A stretch of DNA of 19,945 nt. Origin: a virus (Duplodnaviria; Heunggongvirae; Uroviricota; Caudoviricetes). Where the stretch lies: the IMG/VR virus record IMGVR_UViG_2671180417_000021; one strand, written 5' to 3'. Shown here piece after piece: positions 1,216 through 6,397 of the stretch. The notes beneath the pieces were generated by a model. That model was not told where the DNA came from, made no database searches, and saw only the letters and a program-made list of their open reading frames with translations. The position numbers were made by a program, and so were the translations under genes. Every line of letters starts with the position of its first letter. The stretch's first letter is position 1.

Positions 1216-1292
1216 TGGCGCGTTGTACTGGATTCGAACCAGTGACCGATTGCTTAGAAGGCAATTGCTCTGTCCGGCTGAGCTAACAACGC
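1216..1292 (-). tRNA. argO: tRNA-Arg (anticodon UCU), 77 nt including CCA
   Basis: Hand-folded cloverleaf: acceptor GCGTTGT/ACAACGC, D-arm GCTC..GAGC, anticodon stem ATTGC/GCAAT with loop CTTCTAA, T-arm ACTGG-TTCGAAT-CCAGT, discriminator G, CCA encoded. Gene symbol inferred from the position in the Stx-phage ileZ-argN-argO order. Confidence 0.85.
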
Positions 1293-1305
1293 AGGGTACA
1301 GATAA

Positions 1306-1382
1306 TGGACCGCCATCGAGGACTCGAACCCCGCGCAACCAGCTTCGAAGGCTGGCGCTCTATCCCGATGAGCTAATGGCGG
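1306..1382 (-). tRNA. argN: tRNA-Arg (anticodon UCG), 77 nt including CCA
   Basis: Hand-folded: acceptor CCGCCAT/ATGGCGG, anticodon stem CCAGC/GCTGG with loop CTTCGAA, T-loop TTCGAGT, CCA encoded. Symbol by position. Confidence 0.8.
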
Positions 1383-1391
1383 TATGTGATA

Positions 1392-1467
1392 TGGTGGCCC
1401 TTGCTGGATTTGAACCAGCGACCTGGCGATTATGAGTCGCTCGCTCTCACCACTGAGCTAAAGGGCC
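1392..1467 (-). tRNA. ileZ: tRNA-Ile2-like (anticodon CAU; would score as tRNA-Met without the lysidine context), 76 nt including CCA
   Basis: Hand-folded: acceptor GGCCCTT/AAGGGCC, D-arm GCTC-AGTGGTGA-GAGC, anticodon loop CTCATAA, T-loop TTCAAAT. Close to my recollection of E. coli ileX. Confidence 0.8.
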
Positions 1468-1516
1468 GCGCGCAGAATAATAACGTTACGGAATTAATAC
1501 TGCAATCTCATCCGTT

Positions 1517-2358
1517 TCAAACGATTAAATCCTGAACTTCCCTGACTGTCTGCTCAAAACGTCCGGTCTCCAGCTCAACACCAATCGCACGACGCCCCAG
1601 TGCCATCGCCGCTTTTACCGTTGAACCCGACCCCATGAAAAAATCCGCAACCAGATCACTAGGACGACTACTTGCGCTGATTATCTGCTGCAGCATTTCT
1701 GCCGGTTTTTCGCACGGATGTTTCCCTGGATAGTACTGCACCGGTTTATACGTCCACACATCGGTGTACGGCACCTGCACCGTCACACCGAAATACCGCC
1801 GCAAATTTTTATATTCACTCAGCAGTTCCGTATACTGCCGGTTCAGCTCACTGTATGTGCTGACCAGCTGGTGGTGTGGCTTTTCCAGTTCACCCCGCTG
1901 ATGTTTCTCTTCTGCCACCCGGGCAAACAGCGACTGTAATTTCAGATAATCGCTTTCGTTCGGTAGCTGCCACTGACTGGCACTGAACCAGTGCGACACC
2001 ATGTTTTTCTTTCCTGTGGCATCTGCAATCTGTTTTGCCGTTATCCCCAGGGCCGCGCGCGCATCACGAAAGTAAGAAATCAGCGGGGCCATCACATGCT
2101 GTTTCAGTGCACTGCCCTTCGCCGCATACCCGGCATCTTTCGGACGATACGGCCCCTGATAATGTTCCGCGAACAGAATGCGCTCTGTGGCGGGGAAATA
2201 CGCCCGCAGGCTTTCCTTGTTGCATCCGTTCCAGCGTCCGGACGGCTTCGCCCAGATAATATGGTTCAGCACACTGAAGCGTTCACGCATCATGATTTCG
2301 ATATCAGATGCCAGGCGATGACCACAGAACAGGTAAAGACTTCCGGCAGGTTTCAGCA
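1517..2358 (-). pseudogene. 5'-truncated duplicate of the DNA methyltransferase gene (lacks the N-terminal region with the DPPY motif; reading frame continues into tRNA-derived sequence)
   Basis: ORF 1517..2467 matches the C-terminal ~280 aa of ORF 2646..3695. Its first ~36 codons are the reverse complement of the copy-2 tRNA region. Junction at 2350/2351 inside the tRNA-Arg T-arm. Confidence 0.6.
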
Positions 2359-2421
2359 GGATTCGAACCAGTGACCGATTGCTTAGAAGGCAATTGCTCT
2401 GTCCGGCTGAGCTAACAACGC
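2359..2421 (-). pseudogene. 3'-truncated copy of tRNA-Arg(UCU); lacks the 3' acceptor strand and CCA, T-stem disrupted
   Basis: Identical to 1230-1292 of the intact copy, but the 3' end is replaced by methyltransferase sequence at the duplication junction. Confidence 0.6.
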
Positions 2422-2434
2422 AGGGTACAGATAA

Positions 2435-2511
2435 TGGACCGCCATCGAGGACTCGAACCCCGCGCAACCAGCTTCGAAGGCTGGCGCTCTATCCCGATGA
2501 GCTAATGGCGG
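2435..2511 (-). tRNA. argN: tRNA-Arg (UCG), second copy
   Basis: Identical to 1306-1382 shifted by 1129 bp. Confidence 0.8.
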
Positions 2512-2520
2512 TATGTGATA

Positions 2521-2596
2521 TGGTGGCCCTTGCTGGATTTGAACCAGCGACCTGGCGATTATGAGTCGCTCGCTCTCACCACTGAGCTAAAGGGCC
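2521..2596 (-). tRNA. ileZ: tRNA-Ile2-like (CAU), second copy
   Basis: Identical to 1392-1467 shifted by 1129 bp. Confidence 0.8.
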
Positions 2597-2645
2597 GCGC
2601 GCAGAATAATAACGTTACGGAATTAATACTGCAATCTCATCCGTT

Positions 2646-3695
2646 TCAAACGATTAAATCCTGAACTTCCCTGACTGTCTGCTCAAAACGTCCGGTCTCC
2701 AGCTCAACACCAATCGCACGACGCCCCAGTGCCATCGCCGCTTTTACCGTTGAACCCGACCCCATGAAAAAATCCGCAACCAGATCACTAGGACGACTAC
2801 TTGCGCTGATTATCTGCTGCAGCATTTCTGCCGGTTTTTCGCACGGATGTTTCCCTGGATAGTACTGCACCGGTTTATACGTCCACACATCGGTGTACGG
2901 CACCTGCACCGTCACACCGAAATACCGCCGCAAATTTTTATATTCACTCAGCAGTTCCGTATACTGCCGGTTCAGCTCACTGTATGTGCTGACCAGCTGG
3001 TGGTGTGGCTTTTCCAGTTCACCCCGCTGATGTTTCTCTTCTGCCACCCGGGCAAACAGCGACTGTAATTTCAGATAATCGCTTTCGTTCGGTAGCTGCC
3101 ACTGACTGGCACTGAACCAGTGCGACACCATGTTTTTCTTTCCTGTGGCATCTGCAATCTGTTTTGCCGTTATCCCCAGAGCAGCACGCGCATCACGAAA
3201 GTAAGAAATCAGCGGGGCCATCACATGCTGTTTCAGTGCACTGCCCTTCGCCTCATCGCCATCATCTTTCGGACGATACGGCCCCTGATAATGTTCCGCG
3301 AACAGAATGCGCTCTGTGGCGGGGAAATACGCCCGCAGGCTTTCCTTGTTGCATCCGTTCCAGCGTCCGGACGGCTTCGCCCAGATAATATGGTTCAGCA
3401 CACTGAAGCGTTCACGCATCATGATTTCGATATCAGATGCCAGGCGATGACCACAGAACAGGTAAAGACTTCCGGCAGGTTTCAGCACCCGCCAGAACTG
3501 CGCCAGACACTGGTCCAGCCACTTCAGGTAATCATCGTCGCCCTTCCACTGGTTATCCCAGCCCTCAGGCTTCACTTTAAAGTACGGCGGGTCCGTGACT
3601 ATCAGGTCAACAGAATTTTCGGGTAACGACCGGATAAATTCCAGGCAGTCGGCGTTGATTAACTCACAACTGGATATTTTTACAGTATTAAGCAT
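2646..3695 (-). CDS. DNA methyltransferase, beta-class N6-adenine/N4-cytosine type (DPPY motif near the N-terminus, FxGxG motif near the C-terminus)
   Basis: 349-aa ORF. LIVTDPPYF (motif IV) precedes ADFFMGSGST (motif I). ATG at 3695-3693. Confidence 0.85.
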   Translation of the reverse strand: MLNTVKISSCELINADCLEFIRSLPENSVDLIVTDPPYFKVKPEGWDNQWKGDDDYLKWLDQCLAQFWRVLKPAGSLYLFCGHRLASDIEIMMRERFSVLNHIIWAKPSGRWNGCNKESLRAYFPATERILFAEHYQGPYRPKDDGDEAKGSALKQHVMAPLISYFRDARAALGITAKQIADATGKKNMVSHWFSASQWQLPNESDYLKLQSLFARVAEEKHQRGELEKPHHQLVSTYSELNRQYTELLSEYKNLRRYFGVTVQVPYTDVWTYKPVQYYPGKHPCEKPAEMLQQIISASSRPSDLVADFFMGSGSTVKAAMALGRRAIGVELETGRFEQTVREVQDLIV

Positions 3696-3787: not shown

Positions 3788-3818
3788 GGCTGGTGGGTGC
3801 CCCTAACACCCACCAGCC
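3788..3818. other. Perfect 12-bp stem / 7-nt loop hairpin (GGCTGGTGGGTG-N7-CACCCACCAGCC) between the upstream terminator and the methyltransferase gene
   Basis: Read directly. No flanking U-tract, so not a canonical terminator. Function unknown. Confidence 0.5.
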
Positions 3819-3833
3819 GCCCATTTACCACAA

Positions 3834-3859
3834 ATAAAAAAGCCTTCACTGCGGAAGGC
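3834..3859 (-). terminator. Rho-independent terminator overlapping the stop codon of the small ORF 3846..4043
   Basis: Minus strand: GCCTTC-CGCAGT-GAAGGC followed by TTTTTTATTTG. Confidence 0.6.
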
Positions 3860-4043
3860 GTCTGTAACAACCGAACTGATAGTCTGCCAGACCCGCCATA
3901 ACCAGCTGGGTCAGTATTAACTGGCAGCGTTCGCGTGAAAGGTAAGTATTCTGCGCAATCTCCCCGACTGTCGCCGGTTCGGTGACGCTCAATTCATTAA
4001 ACACCACTCTGGCGGTTTCGGTCATATCTTGCTGTTTTAGCAT
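3846..4043 (-). CDS. Small hypothetical protein (65 aa), possible winged-helix/HTH fold
   Basis: ORF 3846..4067 trimmed to ATG at 4043 (MLKQQDMTETARVV...), which has AAGGGA 8 nt upstream. The segment ATVGEIAQNTYLSRERCQLILTQLVMAGL is HTH-like. No family recognised. Confidence 0.45.
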   Translation of the reverse strand: MLKQQDMTETARVVFNELSVTEPATVGEIAQNTYLSRERCQLILTQLVMAGLADYQFGCYRRLPQ

Positions 4044-4164
4044 GTCTTTTTCCCTTCTGGTTAACATGACATACCAATAACTCTTGTCTAAAAAGCCAGC
4101 AAGATAAAAAGTCAGTATTCACGACCACCAGCGTGTTTACTGTACTGCACCAAGTTTACAGGTA

Positions 4165-4190
4165 CAAAAAACCCGCTCAGTGGCGGGTTT
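4165..4190 (-). terminator. Strong rho-independent terminator (tR'-like) downstream of the AT-rich ORF
   Basis: Minus strand: ACCCGC-CACTGA-GCGGGT followed by TTTTTTG. Confidence 0.65.
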
Positions 4191-4319
4191 AAGTTGTGTG
4201 GCGAAGTAACCACTCTTAACACACTAATAGCATTTTTGTTATAACACAAGTAGCTCATTCAGTATTTTTAGAATCTTGACTTTCTTAAGCACGGCGAACT
4301 CTGAATACCAAACATAAAA

Positions 4320-4937
4320 TCAATTATCTTCCAGGCCGGATGCTATCAACGAAAGCCTCTCAAAAAACGCTGTAGCAGCCTTGTCCAAAGTTGAATAAGT
4401 ACTGTATTCTCCGTGTTCGGGACCAACCACTACCCATGGTCGTCTTTTTGGGATTCGGGACTTCTCAGAAATCACTGTTCCAGATATACCAATATCAATT
4501 GTTACACCTGTTATTATTTTCTCTTCATCTCTTTCCCTGAACTCAATTGCCATAAATGCCGTTTTTTTTCGTTTCCCGTTTTTAAAAAAATCAAATAAAG
4601 CAAAGCGATGCTCATTAAAATCAACACCCCATCGTCCTTCAGGATAAAGGGCATGAAAGTTGTCATTTACGCTCTGCATCGTCTCATAAGCTTTAACTTC
4701 TAAATCTCCATAGTGCATAGATACCGCGCAGGAGTCACTGGGTAACTGTATTTTCCCAAGATTGAAAACCTTTACTGCTCCAGAACTATGGCATCTTGCC
4801 CGCAATTTATCCCCATTTATACTAATCGGAGAAATATTCCTTAATGTTCCGGGCTGGCTCCCTCCTAAGTAAACGACTGTTAAAGATTGCTTATTTTCAA
4901 TTGCATCAACTAATACATGCTCTACATTTTTATCCAT
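4320..4937 (-). CDS. AT-rich hypothetical protein (205 aa) immediately downstream of Q; cargo (moron) position
   Basis: ORF 4320..4964 trimmed to ATG at 4937 (MDKNVEHVLV...), which has GGGAGG 5 nt upstream; the ATG at 4964 has no SD. Visibly lower GC than neighbours. N-terminal segment VVYLGGSQPGTLRNISPISINGDKLRARCHSSGAVKVFNLGKI is faintly reminiscent of a WYL-type SH3-like barrel (unverified). Confidence 0.6.
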   Translation of the reverse strand: MDKNVEHVLVDAIENKQSLTVVYLGGSQPGTLRNISPISINGDKLRARCHSSGAVKVFNLGKIQLPSDSCAVSMHYGDLEVKAYETMQSVNDNFHALYPEGRWGVDFNEHRFALFDFFKNGKRKKTAFMAIEFRERDEEKIITGVTIDIGISGTVISEKSRIPKRRPWVVVGPEHGEYSTYSTLDKAATAFFERLSLIASGLEDN

Positions 4938-4939
4938 AA

Positions 4940-4974
4940 TAACCTCCCAATGAACAGGTATCATCAGGAGGTTA
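4940..4974 (-). promoter_or_regulatory. SD-sequestering hairpin in the 5' leader of the 4320..4937 ORF
   Basis: mRNA sense reads UAACCUCC-N19-GGAGGUUA-UU-AUG. The 8-nt 3' arm contains the Shine-Dalgarno sequence and is the perfect complement of the 5' arm. Confidence 0.5.
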
Positions 4975-5012
4975 TAATAAAATATGATTATTTACTTTGA
5001 TTGAATTTATTA

Positions 5013-5384
5013 CTATATGTAACAATCAATTTCTAAAGATACCCCCAACATTGCCAGACAACCGTCAATAAACCCTTCAGCTTTCTGCAGTCTGATAACA
5101 ACCTGATTAAGTGATATCCCCAGTTTTACCCCCAACACCCGTAATGTAACCCCATACACATAATACATTTCCAGTAATTCGTATTGATACGGTTCCTTTT
5201 TCTTAAGAACTGTCATCGCAGAGCTAATGATCAGGCCATCGTCATCGCTACATTGCGGGCGGGATTTTACTTTCGAAGGAATTAATCCCTTAAAACCTGC
5301 AGCAACAGATGACCATTCCACATCCTCGTGATTATTTGCCACCCATGCCCCCCAACGTTCAAGAACCATTTGAATATCACGCAT
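5013..5384 (-). CDS. Q: Late-gene antiterminator Q (short, ~125-aa QuuD/phage-82-type family)
   Basis: ORF 5013..5399 starts on TTG; preferred start is ATG at 5384 (MRDIQMVLERWGAW...) with GGAG 7 nt upstream. Size and sequence resemble my recollection of E. coli QuuD. Positioned between the nin-like genes and the late-region cargo. Confidence 0.75.
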   Translation of the reverse strand: MRDIQMVLERWGAWVANNHEDVEWSSVAAGFKGLIPSKVKSRPQCSDDDGLIISSAMTVLKKKEPYQYELLEMYYVYGVTLRVLGVKLGISLNQVVIRLQKAEGFIDGCLAMLGVSLEIDCYI

Positions 5385-5401
5385 CAACTTTCTCCACAAA
5401 A

Positions 5402-6397
5402 TCAGGCCAGCACGCCTATTGCCAGCGCACGATCGATAAAACGAAATATCAGCTCCAGCTGGGAGCCATACTTCTCTTCAAATGCCACGGTATCCGCATG
5501 CAGCTCGTCGTGATGCTTTCTGCACAAAGGCAGCACGAAGAGGTCATGCGCTTTTGTACCCATTCCCCCCTGACCGTGGCCTATCAGGTGGTGGGGATCA
5601 TCAGCAGGCTTTCCACAACATGCACACGGCTGCGTCTTAACCCAGCGCGTGTACTTTTCGTTAACCCAGCGGCGACGTTTTGGGCGTAACATAAAAGACT
5701 CCGGCGACTCCGGATCCACTTTCAGCGCCAGCACCTTTTTCGCTTTATTCTGGATGATGCTGGTGGCCGGAACCGAAGGCACAAGGTCACTCTCCCGGGT
5801 GACAGACGGCACAACAGGCTTCGGTAATCTCAGTGCCTTACGGGCTGCACTTTCCGGTAAGGCATCCGCCAGATCATTACGAACCAGCCACCAGCACAGT
5901 TCCGGCATTGTCACAACGTGACTGTCATCAAAACCGAGATCCCGACGCACAACAGACAACACCCAGCGGGCACAGTTATCCGTTGCCATTGATTCCAGCC
6001 GTTCCGTGAACTGATCGCGCAGCTGGTTATCGCAGTGCCAGCACAGACGGATTGCGCCCGGCGCGTGTCGCATTGTGGTCATGTTCTCGCTGTGCCAGTC
6101 GGAATGAGGCCACTGGCAACCTTTTTCACGAAGTAACCAGCTTTCAAGACATTCCACGCCACCAGCACGACGGATCACTGCCTCATTGCGGAACACGGCC
6201 CGAACGGCAGGATCATCCGCCAGCGGTTGTGATGCTGCCGGAACGGCACCACTGGCAAAAGATGAATAACGTTCCGGCTCAGGCTCCAGCAGGACACGCC
6301 CCTGCATAAACAGGGGCATCAGCTCTGAACCGGGTCTGAACAATACGATCCCCATACGCGGGGCAATTTCAGGGGTCAGTAGTGCTCTCACGGTCAC
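5402..6397 (-). CDS. DUF968-like phage protein with C-terminal HNH-like Cys/His motif
   Basis: 331-aa ORF, GTG start overlapping the upstream stop. C-terminus CACCGKPADDPHHLIGHGQGG...LCRKHHDELH resembles an HNH/zinc-finger nuclease motif. Typical gene just upstream of Q in lambdoid prophages. Confidence 0.55.
   Translation of the reverse strand: MTVRALLTPEIAPRMGIVLFRPGSELMPLFMQGRVLLEPEPERYSSFASGAVPAASQPLADDPAVRAVFRNEAVIRRAGGVECLESWLLREKGCQWPHSDWHSENMTTMRHAPGAIRLCWHCDNQLRDQFTERLESMATDNCARWVLSVVRRDLGFDDSHVVTMPELCWWLVRNDLADALPESAARKALRLPKPVVPSVTRESDLVPSVPATSIIQNKAKKVLALKVDPESPESFMLRPKRRRWVNEKYTRWVKTQPCACCGKPADDPHHLIGHGQGGMGTKAHDLFVLPLCRKHHDELHADTVAFEEKYGSQLELIFRFIDRALAIGVLA

Follow-up and report, generated by a model that had tools for sequence, protein, structure and literature searches.

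A predicted stand-alone WYL-domain gene in a cargo slot between the Q antiterminator gene and the putative late promoter of lambdoid prophages

What is the function of an AT-rich gene that sits next to the Q antiterminator gene of a lambdoid prophage, and which transcript is it translated from? The question is raised by a 205-aa open reading frame (ORF) on the minus strand of a 19,945-nt stretch of DNA from the Caudoviricetes record IMGVR_UViG_2671180417_000021 (the window, to whose whole length the coordinates given here refer). Profile searches and structure modelling indicate that its product is a stand-alone WYL-domain protein belonging to a large, uncharacterised family, in which a known sensor domain is combined with a new partner domain. 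The explanation that best accounts for the locus as a whole, to which we assign a probability of about 50%, is that the ORF is a stand-alone WYL gene of phage-host conflict, carried in a slot ahead of the late promoter pR' and gated at the level of translation by a hairpin in its leader; all functional statements made here about the ORF are predictions. The data show the gene, the fold and conserved motif of its product, purifying selection, the hairpin, the mosaic structure and the genomic contexts, whereas the ligand, the promoter positions, the translational gating and the defence role are deduced from them. WYL domains are the single-stranded DNA (ssDNA)-sensing switches of regulators that control cyclic oligonucleotide-based antiphage signaling (CBASS), bacteriophage exclusion (BREX), CRISPR and DNA-damage responses, and a widespread version of the domain with the sensor but without a DNA-binding or enzyme output could represent a new principle of defence or counter-defence.

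Reading frame, family and fold of the product

The ORF extends over positions 4320-4937 of the minus strand, with its ATG at 4937-4935 and the stop codon included at 4320. A first-pass annotation of the window had proposed a 205-aa ORF between Q and a minus-strand terminator, and this ORF is indeed annotated by RefSeq as coding sequence WP_000360285.1 in Escherichia coli E189, the DNA of which is 100% identical to the window over 4100-5100. A second E. coli allele is 78% identical in DNA and 72% in protein, and the ratio of nonsynonymous to synonymous substitution rates (dN/dS) between the two is 0.22 at a dS of 0.8; the ORF is therefore under purifying selection and constitutes a real gene. 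A decaying or spurious ORF was rejected on the basis of this ratio and of the large size of the family. Also rejected was a 214-aa reading from the ATG at 4964, because it lacks a Shine-Dalgarno (SD) sequence and its start lies inside a hairpin stem.

No family had been recognised for the product in the first-pass annotation, a view that profile searches overturned. The protein matches PHROG 8498 over 205/205 positions (E = 2.9e-126) and, partially, the 374-aa PHROG 31886; as both are annotated as "unknown function", membership provides no mechanism. The newer RefSeq annotation reads "WYL domain-containing protein". A word-indexed protein search detected few relatives. A profile built from a 5-sequence alignment found 7 genome loci, and the family profile, run against 1.84 billion cluster representatives, matched 954 clusters at E ≤ 1e-3 and 191 at E ≤ 1e-30, these being clusters at 50% identity with members of nearly always 190-200 aa.

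An AlphaFold (AF2) model built on 106 family sequences (mean predicted local distance difference test score, pLDDT, 86.5) consists of two domains separated by a disordered linker at residues 69-79. The first domain, codons 1-64 (4746-4937, minus strand), comprises a helix and five strands that form the Sm/SH3-like five-stranded beta-barrel expected of a WYL domain, with the motif Y23-GGS27-PG-x2-R33. The faint resemblance of the N-terminal ~60 residues to a WYL/SH3-like barrel, noted earlier as unverified, was thus confirmed by fold and by profile. The family profile matched DriD chains with E = 1.3e-4, its stretch YhGGSqpGavReIaP aligning with DriD YEGGSTPGRTREVTP. Within this stretch, DriD residues Y168, S172 and R178 contact the ssDNA backbone (PMC9186387), and the serine and arginines of CapW that are equivalent to the DriD contacts (CapW S144) are needed for signalling (PMC11662680). 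The equivalents of DriD Y168, S172 and R178 in the ORF protein are Y23, S27 and R33; the first and the last do not vary among the 106 sequences, and S27 is nearly invariant. K56 is also invariant in the family and F58 nearly so; matched by eye, they could be the counterparts of DriD R204 and W206. The Pfam WYL model was matched by 39/106 family members at E < 0.01, with a best E of 4.8e-8.

Several observations have to be set against the WYL assignment. The ORF protein itself scores 16.5 bits against Pfam WYL PF13280, below the cut-off of 21.8 (E = 0.0085). The equivalent of DriD R176 is T31, which is not conserved in the family, and the later WYL strands (R48, K56, F58) were mapped onto DriD by eye only. 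Apart from these points, the strand that probably corresponds to the W-Y-L tripeptide reads L-R-A-R-C (residues 45-49); this tripeptide is also degenerate in DriD (NYL) and in CapW (WHV).

The C-terminal domain, codons 82-205 (4323-4694, minus strand), is an alpha/beta sandwich that runs from one helix through an antiparallel sheet to another helix; FKNGK and RPW are its conserved motifs. Its conserved residues are structural or basic and not catalytic. It has no detectable relatives: searches of its profile against PDB and Pfam returned chance-level matches only, and similarity to the WCX domain was not detectable. No helix-turn-helix (HTH) was matched in Pfam or NCBIfam, nor was one found in the AF2 model, where the WYL domain begins at residue 1. 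Without an N-terminal winged HTH, the protein cannot be a classical transcription factor, and no enzyme domain is recognisable in it. For the whole protein, phmmer against PDB sequences gave no match, Foldseek against the BFVD viral structures gave none at E ≤ 0.001, and an NCBIfam scan returned nothing relevant; the same was true of a literature search for the gene or for HTH-less phage WYL proteins.

This architecture differs from those of the WYL proteins described so far. DriD of Caulobacter, CapW of CBASS, BrxR of BREX and PafBC have an N-terminal winged HTH, whereas the ORF protein has none and its C-terminal domain is not recognisably WCX; DriD, CapW and BrxR are also longer (~290-330 aa against ~200 aa). 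Regulators of the wHTH-WYL-WCX type lie beside a regulated operon with an inverted-repeat operator, but the ORF adjoins no such operon. WYL1, the accessory protein of Cas13d, has a ribbon-helix-helix domain and works with Cas13d, whereas the ORF protein is without a partner, and the WYL domain of bacterial PIF1 helicases is fused to an enzyme, whereas here there is no catalytic domain.

A low-GC mosaic module ahead of the putative late promoter block

On the minus strand, the ORF (4937-4320) is preceded by a DUF968 gene (5402-6397), by Q (5013-5384) and by a leader that runs from the Q stop to the ORF start (4938-5012, GC 0.25) and measures 75 nt, not the 76 bp stated earlier. Beyond it come a 130-nt spacer, a strong intrinsic terminator, a small ORF, an N6/N4 DNA methylase gene and tRNA genes. 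The 123-aa Q protein belongs to the Q21 family (Pfam PF06530, Phage_antitermQ, E = 1.3e-47; phmmer E = 5.6e-10 against the Q21 structures 6p18 and 6jnx).

The lower GC of the ORF relative to its neighbours, first judged by eye, was upheld by a quantitative check: GC is 0.396 and GC at third codon positions (GC3) 0.32, against 0.51-0.56 and 0.57-0.63 in neighbouring genes (GC/GC3 of DUF968, 0.563/0.58; methylase, 0.519/0.58; rusA, 0.545/0.63), and only 6.5% of the 618-nt windows across the 19.9 kb have a GC as low. The last 210 nt of Q (5013-5222; GC 0.39, GC3 0.40) and the 3' flank (GC 0.32) are low in GC, as is the leader, so the low-GC tract extends past the ORF on both sides. Counts over 5,426 complete E. 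coli genomes are in line with this layout. Other E. coli Q genes, quuD included, match only the first 135-162 nt of the window Q, with 85-92% identity. At least 80% of the window Q is held by only 52 genomes, and the ORF allele with at least 99% identity is likewise present in 52; therefore a mosaic joint, and with it the start of the module, lies inside Q. The module opens with an allele-specific low-GC 3' part of Q (5013-5250, minus strand) restricted to the 52 genomes with this WYL gene, and the recombination joint itself can be placed at 5223-5250. The 78% allele occurs in 22 further genomes, always right after a matching Q, which brings the carriers of the ORF to 74/5,426. Of the earlier proposal of an insertion directly after Q, the AT-rich, mosaic and variable slot beside Q stands, whereas the insertion point has to be moved, as the module begins inside Q. 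Four parts make up the low-GC module: the half of Q that sets its specificity, the leader, the WYL gene itself and a putative Q-binding promoter. We infer that the gene may owe its tight linkage to this position, in which the parts on either side of it have to remain matched to each other.

Parts of the terminator block and its flanks (~4238-4100) recur in ~1,400 E. coli records, as does the terminator with its downstream flank (4189-4100), and in many lambdoid phages, but the ORF does not. In relatives, other cargo is found between Q and this block. Phage 569R4 has two reverse genes encoding 286-aa and 182-aa proteins (L003, 969-2364), phage cdtI has reverse genes for a DUF6731 protein and a 147-aa protein (L006, 1017-2405), and O104:H4 has reverse genes for a 404-aa protein and an NA37 nucleoid-associated-like protein (L005, 39-2431). 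Ayreon, with a different Q type, carries two small forward genes there, and K-12 DLP12 carries nmpC, in reverse, with IS5, in the order quuD, nmpC, block, essD. In 569R4, cdtI and O104:H4 the distance from Q to the cargo is 12-23 nt, or the cargo runs into the stop codon of Q, so that no promoter fits between Q and cargo in these three. PADLOC detected no known defence system in the cargos of O104:H4, cdtI, 569R4 and Ayreon, in which Pfam recognised only NA37 and DUF6731; consequently, the slot cannot be called a defence hotspot. The reverse two-gene cassettes are candidates for functions expressed in the lysogen.

The ORF shows patchy presence between conserved backbone genes and deviant composition, both of which are typical of morons; as to a promoter and terminator of its own, it has a -10-like TATTAT with a weak -35, and a terminator shared with the presumed pR' unit. 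In DLP12, nmpC lies in the same slot between a Q21-family Q and the promoter-terminator block and resembles the ORF in variable content and deviant composition. However, nmpC and most slot cargos are oriented opposite to Q, whereas the ORF is co-oriented with Q, shares tR' and has an SD-sequestering leader. The position had first been equated with the one that other lambdoid phages use for toxin and defence genes, and for the toxin slot this equation failed. In the Stx2a prophage of E. coli 2015C-3905 (L019, 4050-7933) the 78% WYL allele lies ~2 kb upstream of stx2AB, which occupies a separate slot farther downstream, after the terminator, small ORF, methylase and tRNAs, and the equivalent slot of DLP12 holds nmpC. 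A cargo slot set between Q and the promoter of Q, and distinct from the stx slot, thus appears to exist in Q21-type lambdoid prophages, among them K-12 DLP12 and some Stx2a phages; no description of such a cargo site was found in the searchable literature. The position of the slot matters for predicting whether a given prophage cargo is expressed in the lysogen or only upon induction.

In all cargo-bearing relatives, the block is ordered as a variable segment, a T-A-n-n-n-T hexamer, GTTAAGAGTGG and the terminator. In the window, on the minus strand, the 17-mer TTGTGTTATAACAAAAA at 4233-4249 is the candidate Q-binding and -35 region of pR', identical at 17/17 positions between the two alleles with a diverged flank. 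The candidate -10 of pR' (TAGTGT, 4221-4226) follows. Six diverged relatives, DLP12 among them, all keep its T-A-n-n-n-T, the three positions that matter most in a -10 element. The invariant GTTAAGAGTGG at 4210-4220, kept across relatives, would contain the transcription start and the initial transcribed region. The intrinsic terminator, which we read as tR', occupies 4166-4190 with an 8-bp stem (4190-4183 with 4176-4169) that has six G-C pairs and is followed by T6 (-13.8 kcal/mol). Differences in the terminator stem among relatives keep the pairing, and a terminator is annotated at the same block in phage Ayreon.

The variable segment appears to follow Q. The WYL-linked Q alleles encode proteins 85% identical, with a nearly identical C-terminal part, which in Q21 contains a DNA-binding motif. 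Phages in which Q is only 47-50% identical have another sequence at the position of the 17-mer, and in phages with other Q we read short tandem direct repeats at that position, the kind of site that is bound by Q21. As the variable segment tracks the Q type and the block is conserved after the cargo, pR' was placed at ~4249-4221. This is the most likely position from the comparison, with a predicted start near 4215 and an RNA of ~50 nt ending at tR' (4166-4190); it differs from the two sites proposed earlier, the gap between Q and the ORF or the region beyond the terminator, in that it falls after the stop codon of the ORF but before the terminator. Short RNAs running from pR' to tR' are known from Stx phages (PMC7547250). 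For lambda 6S RNA and for StxS of the Stx phages of enterohaemorrhagic E. coli (EHEC), too, a strong intrinsic terminator stands close behind the promoter, with Q on the upstream side and the late genes farther downstream. The RNA predicted here would be ~50 nt long against 258 nt in Sakai Stx phages and, unlike in lambda 6S and StxS, the predicted pR' would be set apart from Q by a whole gene. With pR' downstream, the ORF would not form part of the Q-dependent late operon, and it is probably not Q-dependent.

Two points detract from this placement. The proposed pR' matches ~6/12 positions of the sigma-70 consensus and was not called by a promoter scan. In addition, when a pattern containing the 17-mer was searched in viral contigs, 47/47 matches fell on contigs that are, by contig name, also among the WYL loci, so that Q-specific and cargo-specific conservation are not fully separable.

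A different arrangement is suggested by the close association of pR' with Q in lambda, 21 and Stx phages. The 75-nt gap contains the -10-like TATTAT (TATAAT in 12 copies), with AT-rich direct repeats upstream of it, and the first terminator past the gap is that at 4166-4190; were pR' in the gap, the ORF would be a moron inside the pR'-to-tR' leader, expressed constitutively in lysogens, and Q would read through 4166-4190. We consider this quite unlikely. The gap upstream of the hairpin has diverged between the alleles despite their near-identical Q C-termini, in contrast to the conserved 17-mer, and DLP12 and the relatives with reverse cargo abutting Q, which share the block, need a promoter after the cargo. 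Under the placement that we prefer, the ORF would be cargo between Q and the target promoter of that same Q in Q21-type lambdoid prophages, and the minus-strand order would be Q, leader, WYL gene, pR' (~4249-4213), short RNA, tR' (4166-4190), small ORF, methylase, tRNAs and late genes or, in some relatives, stx2.

An Rfam search over 3800-5400 gave only a match at 4062-4198 to STnc130, an enterobacterial small RNA, which at 30 bits (E = 0.042) stays below the gathering score of 55; it lies on the plus strand, opposite to that of the terminator block. The stem of the terminator, whose symmetry is sufficient for it to work in either direction, probably accounts for this match.

The leader hairpin and the candidate promoter of the ORF

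The leader of the ORF can fold into a hairpin with a 15-bp core at 4939-4975 of the minus strand, made of a 5' arm (4975-4961), a 7-nt loop (4960-4954) and a 3' arm (4953-4939). Within it, the anti-SD CCUCC (4971-4967) faces the SD GGAGG (4947-4943). The pairing of UAACCUCC (4974-4967) with GGAGGUUA (4947-4940), with 19 nt between the two, agrees with the paired SD described at first; the stem is larger than in that description, as five outer pairs (4981-4977 with 4937-4933) extend the core and cover the AUG. The hairpin has a folding energy of -23.0 kcal/mol (z = -6.1), and 0/200 shuffled sequences fold as well. Its 5' arm contains ACCUCCU, which we take to be the anti-Shine-Dalgarno core of 16S rRNA.

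The 78% allele retains the hairpin even though the leader upstream of it cannot be aligned with that of the window, and 4/5 stem substitutions in this allele preserve or improve pairing. In six viral-contig copies a G.U pair of the hairpin is changed to G-C, and over 6 leader variants 96.7% of the alignment cells are paired in the hairpin. In E. coli 2015C-3905 (allele 2) the start codon is GTG (GUG in the transcript), which faces a C in the outer stem. Three results count against a conserved regulatory pairing: three copies have an SD mutation that weakens SD and stem alike; covariation was not significant (284/500 shuffles reach the observed value), because the variants are too few; and the distant homologues that were checked have no similar leader hairpin.

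A candidate -10 of a promoter belonging to the ORF itself, the TATTAT read from the sequence at 4974-4979 (minus strand), abuts the 5' arm of the hairpin. Its variants are TATAAT in 12 viral-contig copies and TACAGT, which retains T-A-n-n-n-T, in allele 2; the weakness of its -35 and the lack of a call in the promoter scan speak against it. Leaders starting at 4967 or 4965 fold at only ~-6 kcal/mol. This suggests, as a hypothesis only, that translation depends on which promoter made the mRNA. The ORF would be expressed by read-through from the early operon and possibly also from its own weak promoter. On the read-through RNA, the 15-bp hairpin would pair ACCUCCU with the SD and keep translation low, whereas an RNA starting 5-9 nt past TATTAT would drop the anti-SD arm and be translatable. 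Control of translation by the hairpin is, from the sequence, a plausible but unproven mechanism.

The same structure might serve another end. A stem of 20 bp with one bulge falls within the size range of RNase III substrates and could be a processing or mRNA-stability element; UUAUUAU directly after the stem would fit a weak terminator insulating the ORF from Q read-through; and the inverted repeat, 18 bp and a near-palindrome in DNA, could be the operator of a protein. Furthermore, -23 kcal/mol is too stable for a simple thermosensor. We regard these alternatives, taken together, as unlikely, given that the 3' arm coincides exactly with the SD and its partner arm contains ACCUCCU, the arrangement expected for ribosome exclusion. 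Moreover, the U-tract is poor, the site was not called by the terminator scan, and no DNA-binding protein is encoded beside the hairpin.

A change relevant to the proposed translational switch occurs in the viral record IMGVR_UViG_2563366940_000006 (L037), in which the sequence upstream of the hairpin loop is replaced within the ~130 nt upstream of the ORF start. Of the two arms only the one with the SD remains, the anti-SD arm having been lost, and L037 would thus be a natural hairpin-disruption mutant. The replacing sequence is presumably an IS1 end. As a separate observation, the hairpin palindrome yields a near-consensus sigma-70 promoter on the plus strand (4951-4978, TGAACA-16-TATAAT, 10/12 positions). 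Like lambda paQ, which it calls to mind, it would be read antisense into the 3' end of Q. This site is poorly conserved in allele 2, and promoter-like sites in the region do not exceed the number expected by chance.

Homologue contexts, possible roles and neighbouring features

Distant homologues (30-35% identity) have no conserved neighbour and lie mostly in variable, conflict-related DNA. One adjoins genes for an AAA_15 ATPase and for FRG, GmrSD_N, HEPN and NERD proteins (L007), another follows an AAA_13 ATPase and an Mrr-nSTAND3 protein (L120), a third lies between an HD-domain protein, a DUF2971 protein and an OLD-family nuclease (L124), and a fourth is found near an XhoI restriction-modification pair (L125); these four settings are defence islands or restriction-modification neighbourhoods. 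Two prophages, related to each other and each with a PF06530 Q of its own, have a homologue in the immunity region (L119 and L123), and one is carried by an integrative element (L121). The homologue of L015 adjoins a pRha-family gene and is beside large genes without Pfam match, taken for phage structural genes. Some members are fused at the N-terminus to transmembrane and coiled-coil segments or at the C-terminus to double zinc ribbons and transmembrane helices. A metagenomic relative (L013, 611-1159) has a SWIM zinc finger N-terminal to the WYL domain and is without the C-terminal domain.

The homologue contexts, together with the conserved ssDNA-contact residues, point to a protein that acts on its own in phage-host conflict by sensing or binding single-stranded nucleic acid. 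Among the roles considered, a defence-type function in the lysogen is rated most likely, at a little less than even odds. The barrel (residues 1-64) would bind single-stranded nucleic acid, most likely ssDNA, and would sense or sequester such nucleic acid made during infection or DNA damage; output would be via the C-terminal domain, by oligomerisation or partner binding. This role is weakened by three facts: no known defence family matches, PADLOC-DB 2.0 yielding only generic CRISPR-associated WYL models (E = 0.0014-0.0066); no partner gene is conserved among the homologues; and only 2/50,697 genomes of isolated phages encode a relative. In E. coli, the neighbours of the ORF are Q and the late-promoter block, with no adjacent regulated operon for defence or DNA damage.

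The same domain, with contact residues as in ssDNA-sensing regulators and the output HTH missing, would also suit a counter-defence protein. Such a sponge would be made lytically at the end of the early operon, in agreement with the co-orientation of the gene with Q and with the absence of a called terminator between them, and would soak up the ssDNA signal of host WYL responses (CapW/CBASS, BrxR/BREX, DriD-like) or bind the regulators themselves, blunting immunity. Nevertheless, anti-defence genes would not be expected in the defence islands or restriction-modification neighbourhoods of bacteria, which is where several homologues are located, and relatives are almost absent from isolated phage genomes. 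Besides, lytic expression would use the read-through transcript, the very RNA on which the SD is sequestered, and the lack of detectable WCX similarity in the C-terminal domain leaves heterodimerisation with regulators unsupported. We consider a sponge unlikely.

Still less likely is a function in phage development; the probability that is then left falls to other roles. Placed directly upstream of the pR'-tR' unit, and with allele 2 residing in an Stx2a prophage, an Sm/Hfq-like WYL protein might bind phage RNA such as the short pR' RNA, given that the pR'-derived small RNA StxS is functional in EHEC, or might sense DNA damage to tune induction or late expression, including that of Shiga toxin in stx2 prophages. 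However, the similarity to Hfq is that of a generic barrel only, RNA binding is without support, and homologues occur in many non-lambdoid and non-phage contexts.

A broader reading, bold and doubtful in our own estimate, extends the conflict role to the family. The ~950 clusters of HTH-less WYL proteins would then be an autonomous single-gene conflict module with a direct read-out of single-stranded nucleic acid, serving as a new kind of defence or soaking up the ssDNA alarm that turns on immunity under CapW and BrxR control. The E. coli gene would have been trapped between the specificity half of Q and its cognate promoter and would travel with this co-adapted pair, including in Stx2a phages, its translation being promoter-dependent.

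Farther along the window, a 1,129-bp unit is tandemly duplicated at 1230-3487 (copies 1230-2358 and 2359-3487, with 8 mismatches). The unit consists of the 3' part of the methylase gene, a tRNA-Met(CAT)/Ile2-like gene and a tRNA-Arg(TCG) gene, and its duplication results in a truncated second methylase ORF (1517-2467) and in five tRNA genes in total. The stretch shown for E. coli E189 has one methylase and no annotated tRNA genes, and the duplication could be real or an assembly artefact. Between the methylase gene and the terminator, the small ORF at 3846-4043 (minus strand) is the first gene of the presumed late transcript. It matches phrog_331 (E = 1.2e-37), has weak winged-helix (TrmB/MarR-like) similarity, and in many relatives likewise opens the series of genes behind the terminator, ahead of the methylase and, in some prophages, of stx2.

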